Shown here: one piece after another, positions 1,499-15,867 of the stretch | Numbering within the stretch: the stretch's first letter is position 1 | Layout of the letters: every line of letters begins with the position of its first letter | Virus genome (UHGV): UHGV-0369329 | Direction: 5' to 3' (one strand) | Length of the DNA: 23,752 nt | Source of the DNA: a virus | Notes under the pieces: generated by a model | What the model was told of the DNA's origin: nothing | Database searches by the model: none | The model's input: the letters and a program-made list of their open reading frames with translations, nothing else | Translations under genes and position numbers: made by a program

Positions 1499-3496
1499 TT
1501 ATATTGCAGATATTATAAAACATAATAATTCTTCATATCTTATTCCATATCGCTCACCCCCTTCTATAGATATTCTGCGTTCTCCAGTATCATATTCAAT
1601 TAATTTTTCATCACCGGATTCTTCATCAAAAATTATCTTTTTAGCAATTACTGGTTCGTATTCAGTTTCCCATTTATCATAGCAAAAAAGACCATAGTCG
1701 TTTGCATCAAGCCCTTCTTCAGCAAATGCTTTATATACATCTTGGGCAATAATGCCAAAATGTAATCTAGCATTTTCTCCTTTTTCAATTACTGAATCTA
1801 TAAATCTAAAACAACAAACCAAACCCTTTATTTTATATGCAACACGTCTCTCTGCATCAGTAATCGGTCTTTTATCAGTCTTAACTCGACCATCCGATGT
1901 GTTAATCGTTGAAGTGCCAGCAAATATTGTATTCCACCTTCTGGATGCTGAACCGCAATTTCTAGCGTTATCTGTTGCTGGTTGTACCGACGCATCAAAA
2001 CGAGCATAATTATTCTCATCAGAAACAGGTCCCATCAATCCACTCAAAAAAGGGAGCCCGCTCTGATTAGCAATTATTAATTGGTTGTCACCTGAAGAAA
2101 TTGCCGAACCGGCATTGGTTCCGATAAATATATTACCTGTTCCAGAGCTTAACGATCTACCAGATCTATATCCAAGCATTACATTGTTACTTGCCGAACC
2201 AATAGAATTAAGTGAGTCGGCTCCTACTGCGACATTATTCATCCCTGTAGATGTGCCTGTATAAGGGTTATCTATAGAAGAAATCCCTCTTCCTGATCCG
2301 CTACCAATATATGTATTGTTATCTCCATTTGTAATCTCCCTTCCGGATGCATTGCCTATAAATGTGTTATTATTTAGAATGTTATAAGACAACCTTTTGC
2401 CTGATTGGTCTGTAACAATTCCAGCTCGCATTCCAGCCGCTCGACCTATTGCAACATTACCACTACCAGTATGAAGTTGTTGTAATGCACTTGATCCTAC
2501 TGCAACATTAAAATTTCCTTCTTTATTTTCATTTAGGGCATCGCGCCCAATTCCAATTATGTTACTAGCTGTGGTTGATTTTTTGCACGCATTCACACCA
2601 ATTGCTACAATCTCAGTGCCAGTGCATGGCGATGTATCTGTGAGATCGTCTTGAAGGGTATCACCTGATAATACACCTGTCCCAATTGCTGTAATGTTAT
2701 TGCCCGTGCTAATGTTTCTTCCTGCACTTGGTCCAATCGCAACAACTTGCCCGGATATATCATTTCCATTATATATCTTGCCAGCATCAAAACCAAAAAA
2801 AACATTTCCAATTGTCTGAGCAGGATTTGCAAATGGAATAGGTTCGTCTCCTTTACTTTGTATTATTTTACCAGGGCCATAAAATTTTCCATTAATATAG
2901 TTCTCAATTAAATAAGTACCTTGTGGAACATAAACACCGTCAGGTGAAACTGAAGATGCATAGGAAAATATATGTGTTGCGTCAATATTGCCATTAACAA
3001 TGTCGCTAACATCTTCATGTTTTACAAAATCAAGAATACTAATATTCTCTGCATTTTTATCATGCTGTGTTCGTTTTGTAGAATTAATTAAAGGTTGTTT
3101 TACTGTGATTAATGAATCACCAAGCCCATCATCTGAACTTAAAAGTTCTTGCCTTAACTGATCCGGGTCATACTTCAGCACATTAGGAAAATAAAACTGC
3201 TGCGCACCATATGCATCATAAACAGCCATAGAATGGCCTTGCACAGTTACGAACTTGGCAATCTGTCCGTTATATACCGGATATCCGGCAGCGTTAATGA
3301 TTATTGGTTGCGAAACAGGAATGTGAGAACCGTCTTCGTTCTCTACATAAACCTGAATCTGGTTTTCAGGATTTACCGGGTCAGTGTCAATTTTACCGAT
3401 ATAAATTTTGCCATTGGCTACGGCTTTAAAAGAACGCGCCATAGTGAAGAGTTGCGAAGGCATACTCACTACAACATTGGCTGTAATGTCTGTCAT
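1499..3496 (-). CDS. Tailspike/tail fibre: P22 gp9-like N-terminal head-binding domain, glycine-rich repeat fibre, C-terminal intramolecular chaperone (S74-type) domain
   Basis: N-terminus [43 protein letters not shown]...VLKYDPDQ matches the P22 tailspike head-binding domain. The middle has many G-x-x-A/N-rich repeats. The C-terminus has the TSDGRVK autoproteolysis-type motif followed by a chaperone-like domain. GGAG RBS lies 8 nt upstream of the ATG at 3496. Confidence 0.85.
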
Positions 3497-3628
3497 TTAA
3501 TTTGCTCCAGATACAAGGAATCGCCGCAGCATGGCTACGGTTGGCATTTGTTACATACCGAAACGGTACGATTGTTGATTTGTACAGTGGGTTTTACGAT
3601 GCCATTCCACCCATTTGGTGAGACATTG

Positions 3629-3886
3629 ATGATGTACAGCAAATACGATGAGGCGCAGTTCCACTTGAGGCTTACACACGAGTTGCACGCTAAGATTAAG
3701 CAGCGTGCAAAAATGAATAACAGGTCTATCAATTCCGAAATTGTGGCTACGATGGAAGAATCACTCTCCAAACCATCACCTGTAAGCGGGTATCGTGATG
3801 AAGAAGAGAGGCTGGCCTCATTAATCTCGGAACGAGTAAAAGAAGTTGCGGCTGAAATTCTAAGGAAAGAAAAAACCCGCGATTAA
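3629..3886 (+). CDS. Mnt-like ribbon-helix-helix repressor, 85 aa
   Basis: C-terminal part of track ORF 3233..3886. FHLRLTHELHAKIKQRAKMNNRSINSEIV...SKPSPVSGYRDEEERLASL aligns along its whole length with P22 Mnt as I recall it (FNFRMPMEVREKLKFRAEANGRSMNSELL...SKPSPVTGYRNDAERLADE). The 5' part of the track ORF is antisense to the tailspike gene. Confidence 0.75.
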   Translation: MMYSKYDEAQFHLRLTHELHAKIKQRAKMNNRSINSEIVATMEESLSKPSPVSGYRDEEERLASLISERVKEVAAEILRKEKTRD

Positions 3887-3900
3887 GCGGGTTTAGTTTT
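3873..3900. terminator. Bidirectional intrinsic terminator between convergent Mnt-like gene and antirepressor-type gene
   Basis: AAACCCGC-gattaa-GCGGGTTT, followed by AGTTTT on plus and by TTTCTTT on minus. The TAA stop of the Mnt-like gene (3884-3886) sits in the loop. Confidence 0.65.
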
Positions 3901-3912
3901 CATTATAAAATG

Positions 3913-4641
3913 TTACGCCACATTTGAGCCATGTAGCAGGTGTTGTAGTGCTTTAACGCCTTCAGAATTGTAACGGAACGCCTCTACCTGTTTGCTGGAA
4001 TGCGCCGATTTATCTAGGAAGAACTTCCCGTACTGCTCAGTTTTGAGGTTGTTTGCGTTAGCAATGCGACCAATCTTGTTGGCCGTTACTCCAAGCTGCT
4101 CTGCAACCTCCCCTGCTGAGTAGTAATGCTCTTCTATTGCCGGAAGAGGTATTGCATTAAAACCAACGAGCGGGTTGATTATACTTGCTGCCGCTGTCTG
4201 CTTTGCCTCAGGCGCAAGATTTGGCATCAGATCGAACAGATTGGTAACAGCTTCAACCGTCATTTTCAATGTTCTCGCTTGACGATACTCAACAAGTCCA
4301 CTCGCTGATTTACCGCTTTTAATGTGCGCTTCTTGCATACTTTCAAGTTGGTCTACCAGTGAGCGGCGAACGGCTTTTGACTCGCGAGCGGCAACTCGCA
4401 ATGCTTGCTTGATTGACATCTCAATGATAACCATCGAAGTTTTGTTCGCTTTTTGCACTACACTTTTTGTGTAGTGCTCTCCATCCAATTCATCTTCAAT
4501 TTTCTCGATGAATTTGTTATTACGAACCTCCGGCTCACCGCACTGTCTACGAGCCTGATTTACCATCTCAAGCAGGCGCTGGCTGTCAATGGTTTTATCC
4601 GTGACAACGGATCCGATGTTTGCTACATTCTTAAAAGTCAT
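3913..4641 (-). CDS. Antirepressor-type protein with C-terminal KilAC/ANT-like segment, 242 aa
   Basis: Start moved to the ATG at 4641 (MTFKNVANIG...), which has an AAGGAA RBS 6 nt upstream; the track ORF starts 17 codons earlier without an RBS. C-terminal YSAGEVAEQLGVTANKIGRIANANNLKTEQYGKFF resembles the KilAC/ANT domain of phage antirepressors. Family assignment is from memory. Confidence 0.55.
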   Translation of the reverse strand: MTFKNVANIGSVVTDKTIDSQRLLEMVNQARRQCGEPEVRNNKFIEKIEDELDGEHYTKSVVQKANKTSMVIIEMSIKQALRVAARESKAVRRSLVDQLESMQEAHIKSGKSASGLVEYRQARTLKMTVEAVTNLFDLMPNLAPEAKQTAAASIINPLVGFNAIPLPAIEEHYYSAGEVAEQLGVTANKIGRIANANNLKTEQYGKFFLDKSAHSSKQVEAFRYNSEGVKALQHLLHGSNVA

Positions 4642-4729: not shown

Positions 4730-5356
4730 TCAATGAATCCATTCCTCGCCGCGCAGTTTTGCCAGCATTGGCTGAGCGTTCTTTACGACAAAATTGTTGG
4801 TATCAAGATTCTTCATTTCACGAAGAAGTGATTTCTTGGTTTCTTCTGACATATAGCGAGTCTCATATGCGATATCGTAAATCCTTCCTGAAAGCTCAGA
4901 ACAAATTTGCTTCATTCCTGGGTAGATGTGTTTGCACATTTGTTGACTCTTCTCCATCCACAATTGTAAGTAGCAGAGATTAACCAGTTCTTCGTCAGTA
5001 AACTGTTTTGCAATCGGTGAGCATTCTGCCTGCCGATCCAAAATATCCAGCACCCAGCGGCGGAACTCTTTGGCTACCGGAGTGCGAGCAAACATCGCGA
5101 TTAGGTGGGCACCGCGTAGTGAGAAAACTCGCACTTTTTTGCGATAATTTCCTGAGGTACTCACTTCGAGTACCTGAGTCATTCCGGCGCTAAACTCATC
5201 GCTATACTTGTTATAAATCATTGTTACTGCACGACTATTTGCGTATTTAAGTGCAGATGCAATATTAGATGATGTAAACCAAACACCATGCATATCACGG
5301 GTGGGCACCAACTCAACTCCGTGGAAGTTGTAATCTGATTTTGCTACAATATTCAT
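4730..5356 (-). CDS. Antirepressor (Ant-like) with Bro-N/AntA-type N-terminal domain, 208 aa
   Basis: Start moved to the ATG at 5356 (MNIVAKSDYNFHGVELVP...) with an AAGGAA RBS. HGVWFTSSNIASALKYANSRAVTMI...VRVFSLRGAHLIAMFARTPVAKEFRRWVLDIL fits the Bro-N/antirepressor N-terminal pattern. Sits downstream of the Arc-like gene as in P22 arc-ant. Confidence 0.6.
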   Translation of the reverse strand: MNIVAKSDYNFHGVELVPTRDMHGVWFTSSNIASALKYANSRAVTMIYNKYSDEFSAGMTQVLEVSTSGNYRKKVRVFSLRGAHLIAMFARTPVAKEFRRWVLDILDRQAECSPIAKQFTDEELVNLCYLQLWMEKSQQMCKHIYPGMKQICSELSGRIYDIAYETRYMSEETKKSLLREMKNLDTNNFVVKNAQPMLAKLRGEEWIH

Positions 5357-5431
5357 GTTAGTTTCCTTGCATACGGTTACTGACATAGAAGCCCGACTCG
5401 TGTTCGCGCACTGTCGGGCTTCGCTATTTTT
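5357..5431 (+). ncRNA. Candidate sar-like antisense RNA, about 75 nt, opposite the ant RBS, terminating at the 3' end of the arc-like gene
   Basis: Extended -10 TGcTACAAT at 5342-5350. Terminator hairpin GAAGCCCGAC...GTCGGGCTTC (5388-5422) followed by TATTTTT (5425-5431). The transcript would cover the complement of the ant RBS (5364-5369). Same architecture as P22 sar (promoter near the ant start, terminator at the arc end). Confidence 0.5.
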
Positions 5432-5597
5432 ATGTCCTAGCATTCTTCTCTCCAATCAGTCCGTACACTTTTCTCAATTGATAAATAAGTTCCGTGTTGA
5501 ACTGTCGACACTCTTTTTCTCCATTTCTTTCAATCGCCTTCCTTACATCCTCTGGGAAACGAACCTTGCGTTGATACATGTCTTTTGCTTTTTCCAT
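5430..5597 (-). CDS. Arc-like small ribbon-helix-helix protein, 55 aa; below the length cutoff of the ORF track
   Basis: Hand-translated codon by codon: MEKAKDMYQRKVRFPEDVRKAIERNGEKECRQFNTELIYQLRKVYGLIGEKNART. Strong RBS AAGGAG 5 nt before the ATG at 5597. A beta-strand-like QRKVRFPEDV followed by helix is RHH-like, though the NG...E motif is less canonical than in Arc. Position is upstream of ant and divergent from the Mnt-like gene, as for P22 arc. Confidence 0.5.
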   Translation of the reverse strand: MEKAKDMYQRKVRFPEDVRKAIERNGEKECRQFNTELIYQLRKVYGLIGEKNART

Positions 5598-5720
5598 CTC
5601 CACTCCTTAAATAGCCCCACTGTGGGGCAATCGAAATTGTCACACCGTGCGTCATTGAAGTCAACCCCACCGTGGGGCATAATTTACTTATTGTGAATTT
5701 TTCCTGTTTGGACTAATGGT
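5598..5720. promoter_or_regulatory. Divergent promoter/operator region (Pant-like leftward, Pmnt-like rightward) with twin palindromic operators
   Basis: Palindrome 1 GCCCCACtGTGGGGC at 5614-5628; palindrome 2 CCCCACcGTGGGG at 5665-5677. Plus-strand promoter TTGAAG (5655-5660), 17-bp spacer, CATAAT (5678-5683), with palindrome 2 in the spacer. Minus-strand promoter TTGACT (complement of 5659-5664), 17-bp spacer, GACAAT (complement of 5636-5641), with palindrome 1 over the predicted start/leader. The two -35 hexamers overlap. Confidence 0.6.
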
Positions 5721-6095
5721 ATGAGTAGAGAAGACCCTCAACTTCGGATTAGGCTTCCTGTTGAATTAAAAAAAATAATTGAAGCGTCATCAAAACAAAA
5801 TAATCGTTCTATGAATGCTGAGATTGTCACTCTGCTTGAGTTGGCGATTCGTGTTTGTCGTGATTTTGGGCCGGAGGATGGTCCTATCGTTCAGCAGTTT
5901 AAAGAACAACTAGATGCGATAAACAGAAAATATGATAAAATCGAGCATGAAAAACTTATACCTCAACTTTTAGAAATCATAGAAAAACAGAAAAAACAAG
6001 TAGATAAACTTATTAGCATGGTTGAAAGATCAATTCCTCTTTCAGAGGAATATAAGCAGAAATATCTTGGTGATGACAACAAAAAACCCACCTGA
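5721..6095 (+). CDS. Mnt-like RHH repressor with extended coiled-coil-like C-terminus, 124 aa; positional equivalent of P22 mnt
   Basis: N-terminus MSREDPQLRIRLPVELKKIIEASSKQNNRSMNAEIV matches the Mnt N-terminus (MARDDPHFNFRMPMEVREKLKFRAEANGRSMNSELL as I recall). Divergent from the arc-like gene with the operator region between. Confidence 0.7.
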   Translation: MSREDPQLRIRLPVELKKIIEASSKQNNRSMNAEIVTLLELAIRVCRDFGPEDGPIVQQFKEQLDAINRKYDKIEHEKLIPQLLEIIEKQKKQVDKLISMVERSIPLSEEYKQKYLGDDNKKPT

Positions 6096-6110: not shown

Positions 6111-7079
6111 TTAGATTTCTGGTTTCATTCTTCCGAAAACCTTTTCTATTCCTTTTTCGTATTCTTCTCTTGTCTCACTCATCGCTGCGACACCAAGAAG
6201 CTTACCGATATGCTGACGCAAAGCCTTGACACCAATTTCAGAAAGGAACAGATGCAACTTATCAGATTGTTTTCCGTTCTCGTCTCGGCTGGCTCTAATT
6301 TGTTCAAGGATTTTACCTTTACTCTTTGCTAGCGGGGTGTATATCTGCATGTTGGTTAGCTGCCCAAAACGAATAGGCCGTCCTTTCTCTGGCCTATTCA
6401 GGCCGTACAGTCGATACCACTCCTCGTATAGCTCATCTGGAAATTCCTTTTCATATTGACGAGCCTCTTCACGAACAAACGCTTTGAACTCGTCAATGAC
6501 AGCCTGAACTTCTGGACGATAACCAGCAAGCGCATACGCAACCCCCTTAATTCCCGCCTTAGCGGAGGCATTAATAAGTCTCTGTGCTGCGGCGGCTGCC
6601 TTTAACCGTGATTGTGGTAGATCGTCATTATCTTTGGCTTCTATTAGTGCCCTACCAATATCAACAATTGCTGTAATGTCATAACCTAACGCTTGATGAA
6701 CGGTTTTAGACTTCGAAGTAAGTTGAAATTTATAGGGATTTTCCATTTTTCGCTGCAATTCTAGATCTCGGTATTTGCTCATATACTGAGCGCCAAGCAG
6801 TTGATCTAAATCCCTGGCATGTTCACCAATCCCTAGCAACTGAGATAATCCAGTTTTCGTAACAACGACAGTTTTCGACTCGTCATCCAGTACATAACAT
6901 TCAGCATCAATGCCAAAATCATCTAAAAAGTTACCACGATGAGTTGCCCTGAGAATCTTACTTTTCCATCTTGCAGCAGCTGCTTTCTTTGCTATTTCAG
7001 AACGCTGCTCTTTAGTCAGCGACTTTGCGCGAGCGATCCCGCCCTTAGCTTTCCCTTCGCCACTTTTCTTTTCAGTCAT
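6111..7079 (-). CDS. Hypothetical 322-aa protein in the sieA/accessory slot; basic N-terminus with HTH-like SEIAKKAAAARW motif
   Basis: Start moved to the ATG at 7079 (MTEKKSGEGKAKGGIARAKSLTKEQRSEIAKKAAAARW...). Hydrophilic with no obvious TM segment. Not recognisable as any P22 structural protein. A possible P63C-type assignment is only a vague recollection. Confidence 0.55.
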   Translation of the reverse strand: MTEKKSGEGKAKGGIARAKSLTKEQRSEIAKKAAAARWKSKILRATHRGNFLDDFGIDAECYVLDDESKTVVVTKTGLSQLLGIGEHARDLDQLLGAQYMSKYRDLELQRKMENPYKFQLTSKSKTVHQALGYDITAIVDIGRALIEAKDNDDLPQSRLKAAAAAQRLINASAKAGIKGVAYALAGYRPEVQAVIDEFKAFVREEARQYEKEFPDELYEEWYRLYGLNRPEKGRPIRFGQLTNMQIYTPLAKSKGKILEQIRASRDENGKQSDKLHLFLSEIGVKALRQHIGKLLGVAAMSETREEYEKGIEKVFGRMKPEI

Positions 7080-14613: not shown

Positions 14614-15867
14614 TTACTGCCCGGCAATAACGATGCCCGTATATTCAGGAACAAGTACAGAGCAACCGTACAGAGTGGTGAAACGAGCAGTGGTTACGCC
14701 TTTGATGTGGTCGAAGGCGTAAGACATGATCAGCGTAGCGCCCTGCTCTGTGGTTGCTGTCATTACCTGTGGACCCTGACCAGTCGGGAACGCCAGTTTG
14801 CCGTACATCAGCTCAACAGAACCATCAGCCCAGAACAGGTTAGCAGGTGCTGCGTTCTTGTTGAGAATGGTGATTGCTGCTGATGCTGCCGGTTTGGCAT
14901 CGACGTTTGCATATGGACGACTCGCAACATCGGTATTTTCAACAGGGAGAATCTTTGGAGAGATTGTTACGGTAGTTCCGCTAACAGCCAGAACACGGAA
15001 TACCTGCGGTTGCCCGGTGGTATCTTTTGTGATCTGGTGTACGGAATTCACACCGGCAATGGTGAACGCATCACCAACCTGCAAGCCAGATGCAGATACC
15101 GTAATAGTCCCCTGTCGGTTATCAACTGGCATACCATTTGAATCTTTCGCTTCAACCTTGTGTTCAGGTTGGCCTGATACTGTCAAGGATTCAGTGCTTC
15201 CTTTCGGTAATCGACCAGAAATATCGGTCTTGTAGCTATCAAAGGAAGCAACCGGAGGGATCTGCGCTTTTTCGTATGCTGTCAGGGTTGCGCCCTGAGC
15301 ATAGGCACGGTGACCAAGCTCGCCAGCAAGGTCTTTGTAGTTGAAGGGGTTCCAGAAAGAGCGACGGTTGATACCCTGCGGTACACCTATCGCCGTCATG
15401 GTGGCATCAATACCTGCCGCACAGTTCCACAGATCACGGCCCTGTGTACCTGTGGTTGAGTCAGCCATCGTGATCACGTTAGTAGCACGCTGCGTAACCA
15501 TGGAAATCAGGTCAGAGTCAATCTGTGCAGCAAGGCGCATACCTGCGGCTCGACCAGCTTCAGTTTTATGTTCCGGGTCACGCATTTCACGCGCATCCAG
15601 AGTGTACAGAATGTTTTTCGGCTCCTTGAACACAGAAGGAACAAGGCGCTGAACCAGTGCTGTTGGCGTTTTGCTGCTGAGATCGAGGCCTTCCTCAATG
15701 TTCATGTGGTAATGCTGCGGACGATACAGAACATCACCTGCTCGCTGCATTGCGGTATCACCGGGACGGAATTTTTTAGCGTTACGGGAAACTACGCAGG
15801 CGGCCTCAAAGCCTTCAACGTAGTTTTCGAACATGATTTCAAGGTCTTTTGCTAATTGGTTAGCCAT
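14614..15867 (-). CDS. Major coat protein, P22 gp5-type, 417 aa
   Basis: Synteny after scaffold; conserved blocks resembling P22 coat (AGVNSVHQITKD versus AGVKFLGQMAKN; NLFWADGSVELM versus NVFWADDAIRIV, from memory). Confidence 0.85.
   Translation of the reverse strand: MANQLAKDLEIMFENYVEGFEAACVVSRNAKKFRPGDTAMQRAGDVLYRPQHYHMNIEEGLDLSSKTPTALVQRLVPSVFKEPKNILYTLDAREMRDPEHKTEAGRAAGMRLAAQIDSDLISMVTQRATNVITMADSTTGTQGRDLWNCAAGIDATMTAIGVPQGINRRSFWNPFNYKDLAGELGHRAYAQGATLTAYEKAQIPPVASFDSYKTDISGRLPKGSTESLTVSGQPEHKVEAKDSNGMPVDNRQGTITVSASGLQVGDAFTIAGVNSVHQITKDTTGQPQVFRVLAVSGTTVTISPKILPVENTDVASRPYANVDAKPAASAAITILNKNAAPANLFWADGSVELMYGKLAFPTGQGPQVMTATTEQGATLIMSYAFDHIKGVTTARFTTLYGCSVLVPEYTGIVIAGQ

Follow-up and report, generated by a model that had tools for sequence, protein, structure and literature searches.

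A 55-codon arc-like gene ahead of ant in a P22-like prophage, probably arc in an immI-type module for antirepressor control

The DNA analysed here, 23,752 nt of the virus genome UHGV-0369329 (hereafter the window), is a P22-like prophage lying beside tRNA-Arg(CCT) and an integrase gene. Along its minus strand the gene order is as follows: homologues of the P22 ejection genes (one, in the position of gene 16, codes for 610 aa), a P63C-domain gene, an mnt-like gene on the opposite strand, an arc-like open reading frame (ORF), ant, a second antirepressor-like gene and the tailspike gene. The slot held by the arc-like ORF and ant is the place of the P22 'ant moron', or immI (PMC2629481).

The arc-like gene (5430..5597, minus strand), annotated on its sequence, conservation, dN/dS, Arc homology and fold, comprises 55 codons plus a stop codon and runs from an ATG at 5597-5595 to a TAA at 5432-5430; its predicted ribbon-helix-helix product of 55 aa is MEKAKDMYQRKVRFPEDVRKAIERNGEKECRQFNTELIYQLRKVYGLIGEKNART. 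A Shine-Dalgarno sequence, AAGGAG (5603..5608, minus strand), is separated from the ATG by the 5-nt spacer TGGAG. The frame, its coordinates, the AAGGAG and the spacing thus read as the first-pass annotation had given them. In a mechanical ORF list the frame opened two codons earlier, at a GTG (5603), and because that GTG overlaps the Shine-Dalgarno sequence, the ATG at 5597 is the sensible start. The ORF had been called unlisted, which is true of the first-stage ORF track alone, with its 60-codon cut-off; RefSeq already annotates the identical 55-aa protein as WP_001579610.1, under the name 'hypothetical protein'.

Directly 3′ of this gene lies ant (4730..5356, minus strand; phrog_245, 4.6e-52), the second cistron, coding for an antirepressor with Bro-N and P22AR_C domains. 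Its start (5356) was chosen by homology with other loci, which places it 73 nt from the arc-like stop codon, compared with 68 nt in P22. On the other side, in divergent orientation, lies the mnt-like gene (5721..6095, plus strand), which codes for 124 aa with an N-terminal Arc/Mnt ribbon-helix-helix domain (Pfam Arc, 3.1e-7; alignment with P22 Mnt) and a long helical tail. Its N-terminus MSREDPQLRIRLP is kept in all related loci, and SREDPQLRIRLP at its N-terminus parallels ARDDPHFNFRMP of P22 Mnt. The N-terminal domain is common to the two proteins, but the 124-aa protein is longer than P22 Mnt and its tail is unrelated in sequence. It is this partner gene, and not the 55-codon ORF, that corresponds to P22 mnt.

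A search of about 5.8 billion proteins with the 55-aa protein returned at least 129 protein clusters at E ≤1e-3, and every one of the 120 listed of the 129 had an E-value below 1e-17 and an identity of 68-100%. Among the matches listed, the hosts were Escherichia, Klebsiella, Salmonella, Citrobacter, Enterobacter, Raoultella, Cronobacter, Buttiauxella and others (Enterobacterales), and many close relatives bore the NCBI name 'Arc family DNA-binding protein'. The loci used for comparison were 13 others from about 10 genera: 11 from a scan that took a single genome for each species (Rouxiella, Raoultella, Pluralibacter, Citrobacter, Kluyvera, Proteus, Dryocola and Pantoea), one E. coli prophage and phage TL-2011b. 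The first-pass annotation had named conservation in related prophages as a check on the ORF; the results showed that in all 13 loci it has a divergent Mnt-like gene on one side and an antirepressor gene on the other. The order mnt-like, arc-like, antirepressor is syntenic throughout, and an antirepressor gene follows directly 3′ on the same strand in the window and in 13/13 loci, in agreement with the earlier placing of the ORF in the position expected for arc, as first cistron of the ant operon. The antirepressors across these loci belong to three different families, and the Mnt-like tail is variable.

The start codon of the arc-like frame (ATG or GTG) was found at the same place in 13 of the 13 other loci, and a GGAG-type motif stood 5-9 nt 5′ of it in each of them. 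The median pairwise Nei-Gojobori dN/dS of the frame was 0.063, with synonymous sites saturated between genera, compared with 1.6 and 1.8 in the two remaining frames of that strand, which served as control. Variable columns numbered 24, 15 and 48 at codon positions 1, 2 and 3, respectively. The conserved start and Shine-Dalgarno sequence, the low dN/dS and the codon-position bias show that the 55-codon frame is a genuine coding gene, subject to strong purifying selection. It could be held that there is no gene here, the ORF being a chance frame in the ant leader, or that the real gene is a 113-aa ORF on the plus strand (5355-5696): the ORF is short, a search of NCBIfam with the 55-aa protein matched no model, and its RefSeq name is 'hypothetical'. 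Against this stand a dN/dS of 0.063 where both other same-strand frames exceed 1.5, the conserved start and Shine-Dalgarno sequence, and the confident predicted fold described below. The antisense 113-aa ORF was rejected as a gene, being open in few loci only and not conserved. On these computational grounds the no-gene reading is refuted and its probability is negligible.

The product had been described as ribbon-helix-helix-like, and profile searches agreed. Pfam itself was marginal, with PF03869 (Arc) matching the 55-aa protein at an E-value of 0.0011 and 19.2 bits, below the gathering cut-off of 20.4; among the matches listed, six close relatives, 81-93% identical, already have PF03869 among their precomputed hits. 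The Arc family was reached through PHROG 228, 'Arc-like repressor' (E 1.3e-5), through BLASTP against P22 Arc (33% identity over 40 aa, E 2e-5), through hhalign of the 55-aa family profile with P22 Arc, which matched residues 4-44 to 4-44 without a gap (E 1.1e-4), and through a second-round profile. An exhaustive family-profile search of 1.84 billion representative proteins returned 39 hits at E ≤1e-3, and the remote relatives among them share the canonical pattern 'xLRxPxxLxxxIxxxAxxNGRSxNxEI'. An alignment of 37 sequences was made from the query, P22 Arc, the Arc allele carried by another E. coli prophage and 34 of these 39 hits; Pfam Arc matches 28 of the 37, a set that includes two reference Arc proteins, and the query is among the non-matching sequences. 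Against PDB, the first-round, family-only profile found Arc at just E 0.05-0.13, and significance came once the remote relatives were added: the second-round profile (query plus remote relatives) matched permuted Arc (1.2e-14), AmrZ (2.9e-12), Arc (7.7e-10) and Mnt (5.3e-8). De novo designed proteins and primase large subunits, which appeared in the single-sequence PDB search, were rejected as short compositional matches.

From a shallow alignment, in which the 48 sequences were at least 65% identical, AlphaFold gave one long helix at low confidence (pLDDT 64). With a more diverse alignment, the monomer model had a mean pLDDT of 85.6, above 90 for residues 11-40, and was extended up to residue 15 with helices at 16-28 and 33-44, which are the Arc boundaries. 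The predicted model is thus strand-helix-helix, the intermolecular two-stranded beta-sheet, with which the obligate intertwined dimers of this family read the major groove, lying beyond what a monomer model covers, and its predicted DNA-reading strand is residues 9-14 (QRKVRF). The best PDB matches of the model in Foldseek were AmrZ (TM 0.70/0.77) and operator-bound Arc (probability 0.95-0.98), in line with the beta-alpha-alpha fold that the first-pass annotation had put forward for structure prediction. AmrZ of Pseudomonas aeruginosa (PDB 3QOQ) differs: it is a global regulator encoded on the chromosome, carries an oligomerisation domain at its C-terminus and has no link to antirepressor control. 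At the level of profiles and predicted fold, these results show that the 55-aa product belongs with the ribbon-helix-helix proteins of the Arc/Mnt/AmrZ family, in a divergent subfamily.

A ribbon-helix-helix gene of the antitoxin or partition type could be present here by chance, with no relation to ant control. Later Foldseek matches were mostly other ribbon-helix-helix proteins, many of them antitoxins such as VapB, MazE and HicB, and some PHROG matches of the 55-aa protein are labelled 'partition protein ATPase'. However, the same label sits on P22 mnt itself in the P22 record, and it is therefore regarded as an annotation artefact; no toxin or ParA-type gene adjoins the arc-like ORF; and an antirepressor gene downstream with a divergent Mnt-like gene upstream is found in 13/13 loci. 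A chance antitoxin or partition gene is accordingly very improbable.

Arc is marked by R13 in the strand, P15, a G30-R31-S32 turn, N34 and an R31-E36-R40 salt-bridge triad. The title of PDB entry 1MYL mentions the Arc salt bridge. R13, P15, R31, N34 and E36 are present in the 55-aa protein and invariant across its family, but position 30 is Cys or Ser, position 32 is Gln, and R40 of the buried salt-bridge triad is Gln. Comparison with P22 Arc (PDB 1ARR, 1PAR) showed two ribbon-helix-helix proteins of similar length (53 aa in P22, 55 aa in the window), gapless over 4-44, with M7, Q9, R13, P15, V18, R31, N34 and E36 identical. The identity is only about 23-33%, and the window protein falls below the Pfam Arc cut-off. 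The DNA-facing residue 11 is Lys rather than Asn, Trp14 is replaced by Phe, Gly30 by Cys and Arg40 by Gln, and the family of the window protein has an invariant C-terminal motif, Y45-G46-L47, that sets it apart from P22 Arc.

The mnt-like and arc-like genes are separated by an intergenic region of 123 bp that holds two consensus promoters with overlapping -35 hexamers. The Pant-like promoter (5636..5664, minus strand; TTGACT, 17 nt, (TG)GACAAT), found by consensus scan at the position of P22 Pant, is predicted to drive arc and ant. The Pmnt-like promoter (5655..5683, plus strand; TTGAAG, 17 nt, CATAAT), also from the consensus scan, has a -35 that overlaps the Pant -35. P22 Pant and Pmnt have the same divergent, overlapping layout. 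By anatomy and comparison, the arc-like gene is shown to be the first cistron of an arc-ant transcript from the predicted sigma-70 promoter at 5664-5636. The first-pass annotation had noted that the ant operon would lack its first cistron without this ORF, and the arc-like gene completes the annotation of the antirepressor module.

A palindrome search of the region gave three candidate operators. O1 (5614..5628), conserved in other loci, is a perfect palindrome GCCCCAC-T-GTGGGGC, GCCCCACTGTGGGGC, lying over the predicted Pant transcription start; its position and its CCAC-N-GTGG core are those of the P22 mnt operator GGTCCACGGTGGACC. O2 (5641..5651) is an imperfect palindrome, CGCAC-G-GTGTG in the arc sense, CGCACGGTGTG, between the Pant -35 and -10, at the position of the P22 Arc operator. 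O3 (5665..5678) is the palindrome CCCCAC-C-GTGGGG(C), CCCCACCGTGGGGC, between the Pmnt -35 and -10 and directly upstream of the Pant -35. The 11-nt core CCCAC-N-GTGGG, with at most one mismatch, occurs three times in the window compared with 0.42 expected, and the two exact copies are O1 and O3. O2 is identical in 12 of the 13 other loci; the exception, L009, carries the variant GCCTCACCGTGTG, and the same variant sits at O3 in two loci, L003 and L004. Because one variant replaces O2 in one locus and O3 in two, O1, O2 and O3 appear to form one operator family. Across the 13 loci, the 41-nt core that spans O3, the Pant -35, O2 and the -10 has an identity of 95.7%, whereas third codon positions in the arc-like gene beside it reach only 40-60%; such identity in non-coding DNA is a clear mark of function. 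A divergent mnt-type gene, predicted overlapping promoters face to face and candidate operators between them were thus all found, and together they make up the layout of P22 immI.

The candidate operators differ from those of P22 in several respects. Their core is CAC-N-GTG, whereas the P22 Arc operator has TAGA boxes; the palindrome flanks are CCCC/GGGG, compared with GGTC/GACC in the P22 mnt operator, and occur in three versions in the window; and P22 has two unlike operators, whereas the window has three near-identical sites about 25 bp apart. Covariation between recognition residues and operators was looked for across the loci, and both were nearly invariant, so that it gave no assignment of protein to site. 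The predicted DNA-facing residues of the two proteins are near-identical, Q9-K11-R13 in the Arc-like protein and Q7-R9-R11 in the Mnt-like one. With recognition residues so alike and three sites that nearly copy one another, the two proteins may bind in common or compete for binding, and the division of labour may differ from that in P22. A search for LexA boxes found none in the control region and a window-wide count equal to chance. SOS control of ant, as in some other phages, was rejected because the control region holds no LexA box, and it does not replace the Arc/Mnt scheme.

The first-pass annotation had also proposed a candidate sar RNA whose terminator the arc-like stop codon overlaps. 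A sar-like antisense RNA of about 75 nt is predicted at 5357..5433 (plus strand) from alignment with P22 sar, folding and covariation, with an anti-RBS hairpin at 5357-5384 and a terminator hairpin at 5388-5422, both on the plus strand, followed by a T-run at 5427-5431. The overlap is as described: the TAA abuts and overlaps the T-run after the strong plus-strand hairpin, the complement of the TAA being where the T-run runs in. A Psar-like extended -10, TGcTACAAT (5342..5350, plus strand), was read from the sequence on the antisense strand of ant codons 3-4; its P22 equivalent is TGCTATACT. A TAnnnT hexamer antisense to ant codons 3-4 is present in 13/13 other loci, whichever Ant family follows. 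In the P22 record, sar (15021-15090) is antisense and starts just before the ant ATG, with its promoter within the first ant codons and its terminator overlapping the arc stop codon. The predicted elements of the window have the same layout, with a promoter within the ant start, an RNA complementary to the ant RBS and a terminator in the arc-ant spacer.

P22 sar (RF00262) and the sar-like RNA agree in location, strand, a -10 within the first ant codons and two hairpins. Their alignment shows the blocks GAAGCCC...GGGCTTC, TGTCAGTAA and AAC.AACATGAATA; GAAGCCC...GGGCTTC, CTGAC and a 5′-end GTT are common to both, and the T-run of the window RNA is longer than that of P22 sar. Folding of the 77 nt that begin at 5357 gave two hairpins (-33 kcal/mol, z -6.7). 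Stem covariation was read pair by pair from per-sequence folds, the MAFFT alignment having misaligned the 5′ arms for RNAalifold, and the terminator stem could be read in this way in 13 of the 14 aligned sequences. Position 4 of the stem is G-C, G.U or A-U, and position 8 is G-C, U-A, A-U, C-G or U.G. Many of its pairs are G.U, which would be C.A mismatches on the mRNA strand. Because the stem covaries and the G.U pairs fit the antisense strand alone, it appears to be selected on that strand. The Rfam sar model RF00262, run on 5250-5750 with E up to 10, gave no match, compared with 97.8 bits for P22 itself, and at the gathering threshold Rfam matched tRNA only in the window. A SymR match (23.9 bits, compared with 61) was weak and was judged to be due to chance. 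The candidate sar RNA is therefore upheld by P22 homology and hairpin covariation but goes unscored by the Rfam sar model; its position, structure and partial sequence homology make it sar-like, and the curated Rfam model does not count it as a member.

Comparison with other prophages showed that the locus is mosaic. The segment 4600-5433 of the window (ant plus the sar segment) is found at 98-99% identity in E. coli P22-like prophages, which carry other genes in the arc slot; the homology ends at the arc stop codon. A lambda-like prophage of E. coli CFSAN018748 shares the segment 5400-6102 (arc, operators and mnt) at 99.3% identity and encodes the identical 55-aa protein (WP_001579610.1); there the segment precedes a different antirepressor gene and lies among tail genes. 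The combination seen in the window was found in 0 of 5,426 complete E. coli genomes and in no phage record. Among sequenced phages, TL-2011b alone has a homologue (79% identity), called 'Arc-like repressor' in RefSeq. The cassette is joined to three unrelated antirepressor families, in P22-like and in lambda-like prophages. Some P22-like 'ant morons' are said to lack arc, the E. coli HS prophage being named (PMC2629481); in that prophage a small ribbon-helix-helix-like ORF likewise occupies the arc slot.

Like P22 arc, the window gene is the first arc-ant cistron, has ant about 70 nt away and a divergent mnt-type gene, and bears a sar terminator over its stop codon. As read from the sequence and its predicted elements, the layout of the window is that of annotated P22 immI point for point. 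We consider it likely, at a probability of roughly 80%, that this P22-like prophage has an immI-type module for antirepressor control and that the ORF is its arc gene. The most likely function of the 55-aa protein, inferred by analogy with P22, would be that of an autoregulatory repressor of the arc-ant promoter. P22 phages mutant in arc make excess antirepressor and grow poorly. On this analogy the Pant-like promoter would fire soon after infection or induction, giving arc-ant mRNA, and Arc would accumulate. An Arc dimer or tetramer would then bind the operator cluster and turn its own promoter off, limiting the antirepressor to a brief burst, and it would probably repress the mnt promoter too. 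The likeliest Arc site would be O2, the middle operator, which lies between the two Pant hexamers as Oarc does in P22. The Mnt-like protein (124 aa) would bind the perfect palindromes and so keep Pant off during lysogeny, O1 resembling the P22 mnt operator. The sar-like RNA, starting within the first ant codons, would pair with the ant RBS and end at the terminator over the arc stop codon, adding translational repression of ant.

The main task of this genuine ribbon-helix-helix protein may instead be something other than autorepression of arc-ant, such as activation or tuning of the mnt-like promoter, action solely in concert with the Mnt-like protein at shared operators, or control of another phage promoter (e.g., for read-through into the tailspike gene). 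Three near-identical operators served by two repressors whose predicted recognition residues hardly differ, where P22 has two unlike operators, would fit such a role, and a paper on phage epsilon34 notes a possible effect of Arc and Mnt on late transcription into the tailspike gene (PMC2629481). However, the position, size, operon order and promoter layout all match P22 arc, and an operator placed between the two hexamers of the gene's own promoter is read most simply as autorepression. Such a role is thus unlikely, though the least improbable of the alternatives weighed here, and autorepression of the arc-ant promoter is retained as the preferred reading.

More tentatively, and with odds against it, the arc/mnt cassette may represent a distinct immI immunity type with a mode of action unlike that of P22, in which three CAC-N-GTG operators would be shared or competed for by two repressors (Q-K-R and Q-R-R). 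Such a cassette would be portable, and its recombination linker would be the conserved sar segment, the promoter of which is embedded in ant codons 3-4.

The arc-like gene is an ordinary, divergent member of the Arc family in what the comparison with P22 marks as a standard immI-type module, and it is already in public annotation. Were it overlooked, no regulation would be apparent at the 5′ end of the ant operon. Divergent Arc-type genes of this kind can escape both ORF-length and Pfam thresholds, which is relevant to the older statement of arc-less 'ant morons' (PMC2629481). Its practical value is that it offers a defined, widely distributed candidate set of Arc, Mnt and operator specificities for comparison with the P22 paradigm.

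The results showed a mosaic joint at 5400-5433, at the terminator of the predicted sar-like RNA and the stop codon of the arc-like gene, when the window was compared with three related loci (L001, L002 and the E. coli HS prophage, L017). The ant side of the joint matches E. coli P22-like prophages bearing different arc alleles, and the side comprising arc, the operators and mnt shares 99.3% identity with a cassette in a lambda-like prophage, where it is set in the tail-gene cluster and adjoins an antirepressor other than that of the window. None of 5,426 complete E. coli genomes carries the window's combination, nor does any of 50,697 phage records.

Between the arc-like and mnt-like genes, three versions of a CAC-N-GTG palindrome (5614-5628, 5641-5651 and 5665-5678) lie among two predicted overlapping divergent promoters, whereas P22 has two unlike operators. 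The 41-nt core of palindrome and promoter showed 95.7% identity over 13 loci from about 10 genera, and the synonymous sites beside it are saturated.

The HS prophage (NC_009800.1) was reported in 2008 to lack arc (PMC2629481). Here, a ribbon-helix-helix-like ORF of 57 aa was found at 3331-3504, matching Pfam ParD_like (8e-4) and Arc (0.011), with the same ant as in the window downstream; the region considered also takes in 3604-4245. The divergent gene in HS encodes a cI/LexA-like repressor (HTH_3 and Peptidase_S24), whereas the same slot in the window holds an mnt-type gene. In phage TL-2011b (NC_019445.1), the mnt-like gene has an apparent frameshift near its 5′ end (about 2780-2870) when set against the near-identical prophage of E. 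coli ETEC1749, and its sole annotation is an ORF of 113 aa truncated at the N-terminus.

A tRNA-Arg gene (anticodon CCT, 25-99) and, after it, an integrase-sized ORF (225-1418) form the prophage's attachment end, which immediately adjoins the tailspike gene (1499-3496, minus strand). Two more accessory genes border the arc/ant/mnt module. One, immediately after ant (3916-4641, minus strand), encodes a second antirepressor-like protein (phrog_1726, 7e-101) in which no Pfam domain was found; the other (6114-7079, minus strand) has mnt on one side and the gene 16 homologue on the other and encodes a 322-aa P63C-domain protein (phrog_2384), in the place where P22 carries sieA.

A terminator-like hairpin with a T-run (GTGTTGAACTGTCGACAC TCTTTTTC) lies within the arc coding region on the antisense strand (5494-5521, plus strand). 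It could halt read-through of the sar-like RNA or could be a chance occurrence. Its conservation is confounded by the coding constraint of arc.

An in-frame ATG (5384-5386, minus strand) lies 30 nt 5′ of the start assigned to ant and would lengthen the protein by 10 residues (MSVTVCKETN). Because it falls within the segment complementary to sar and none of the other compared loci has an equivalent, it is probably not used. For the antisense sar-type promoter, the predicted extended −10 (5342-5350, plus strand) lies opposite ant codons 3-4; the equivalent hexamer in P22 is at 15097-15102. A TAnnnT −10, mostly with TG upstream, is retained at these codons in every one of the compared loci L003-L016, P22 included, independently of which of three antirepressor families comes next. 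Keeping the hexamer over these codons limits the first residues of Ant to M-x-(I/S/N)-(V/I/L).
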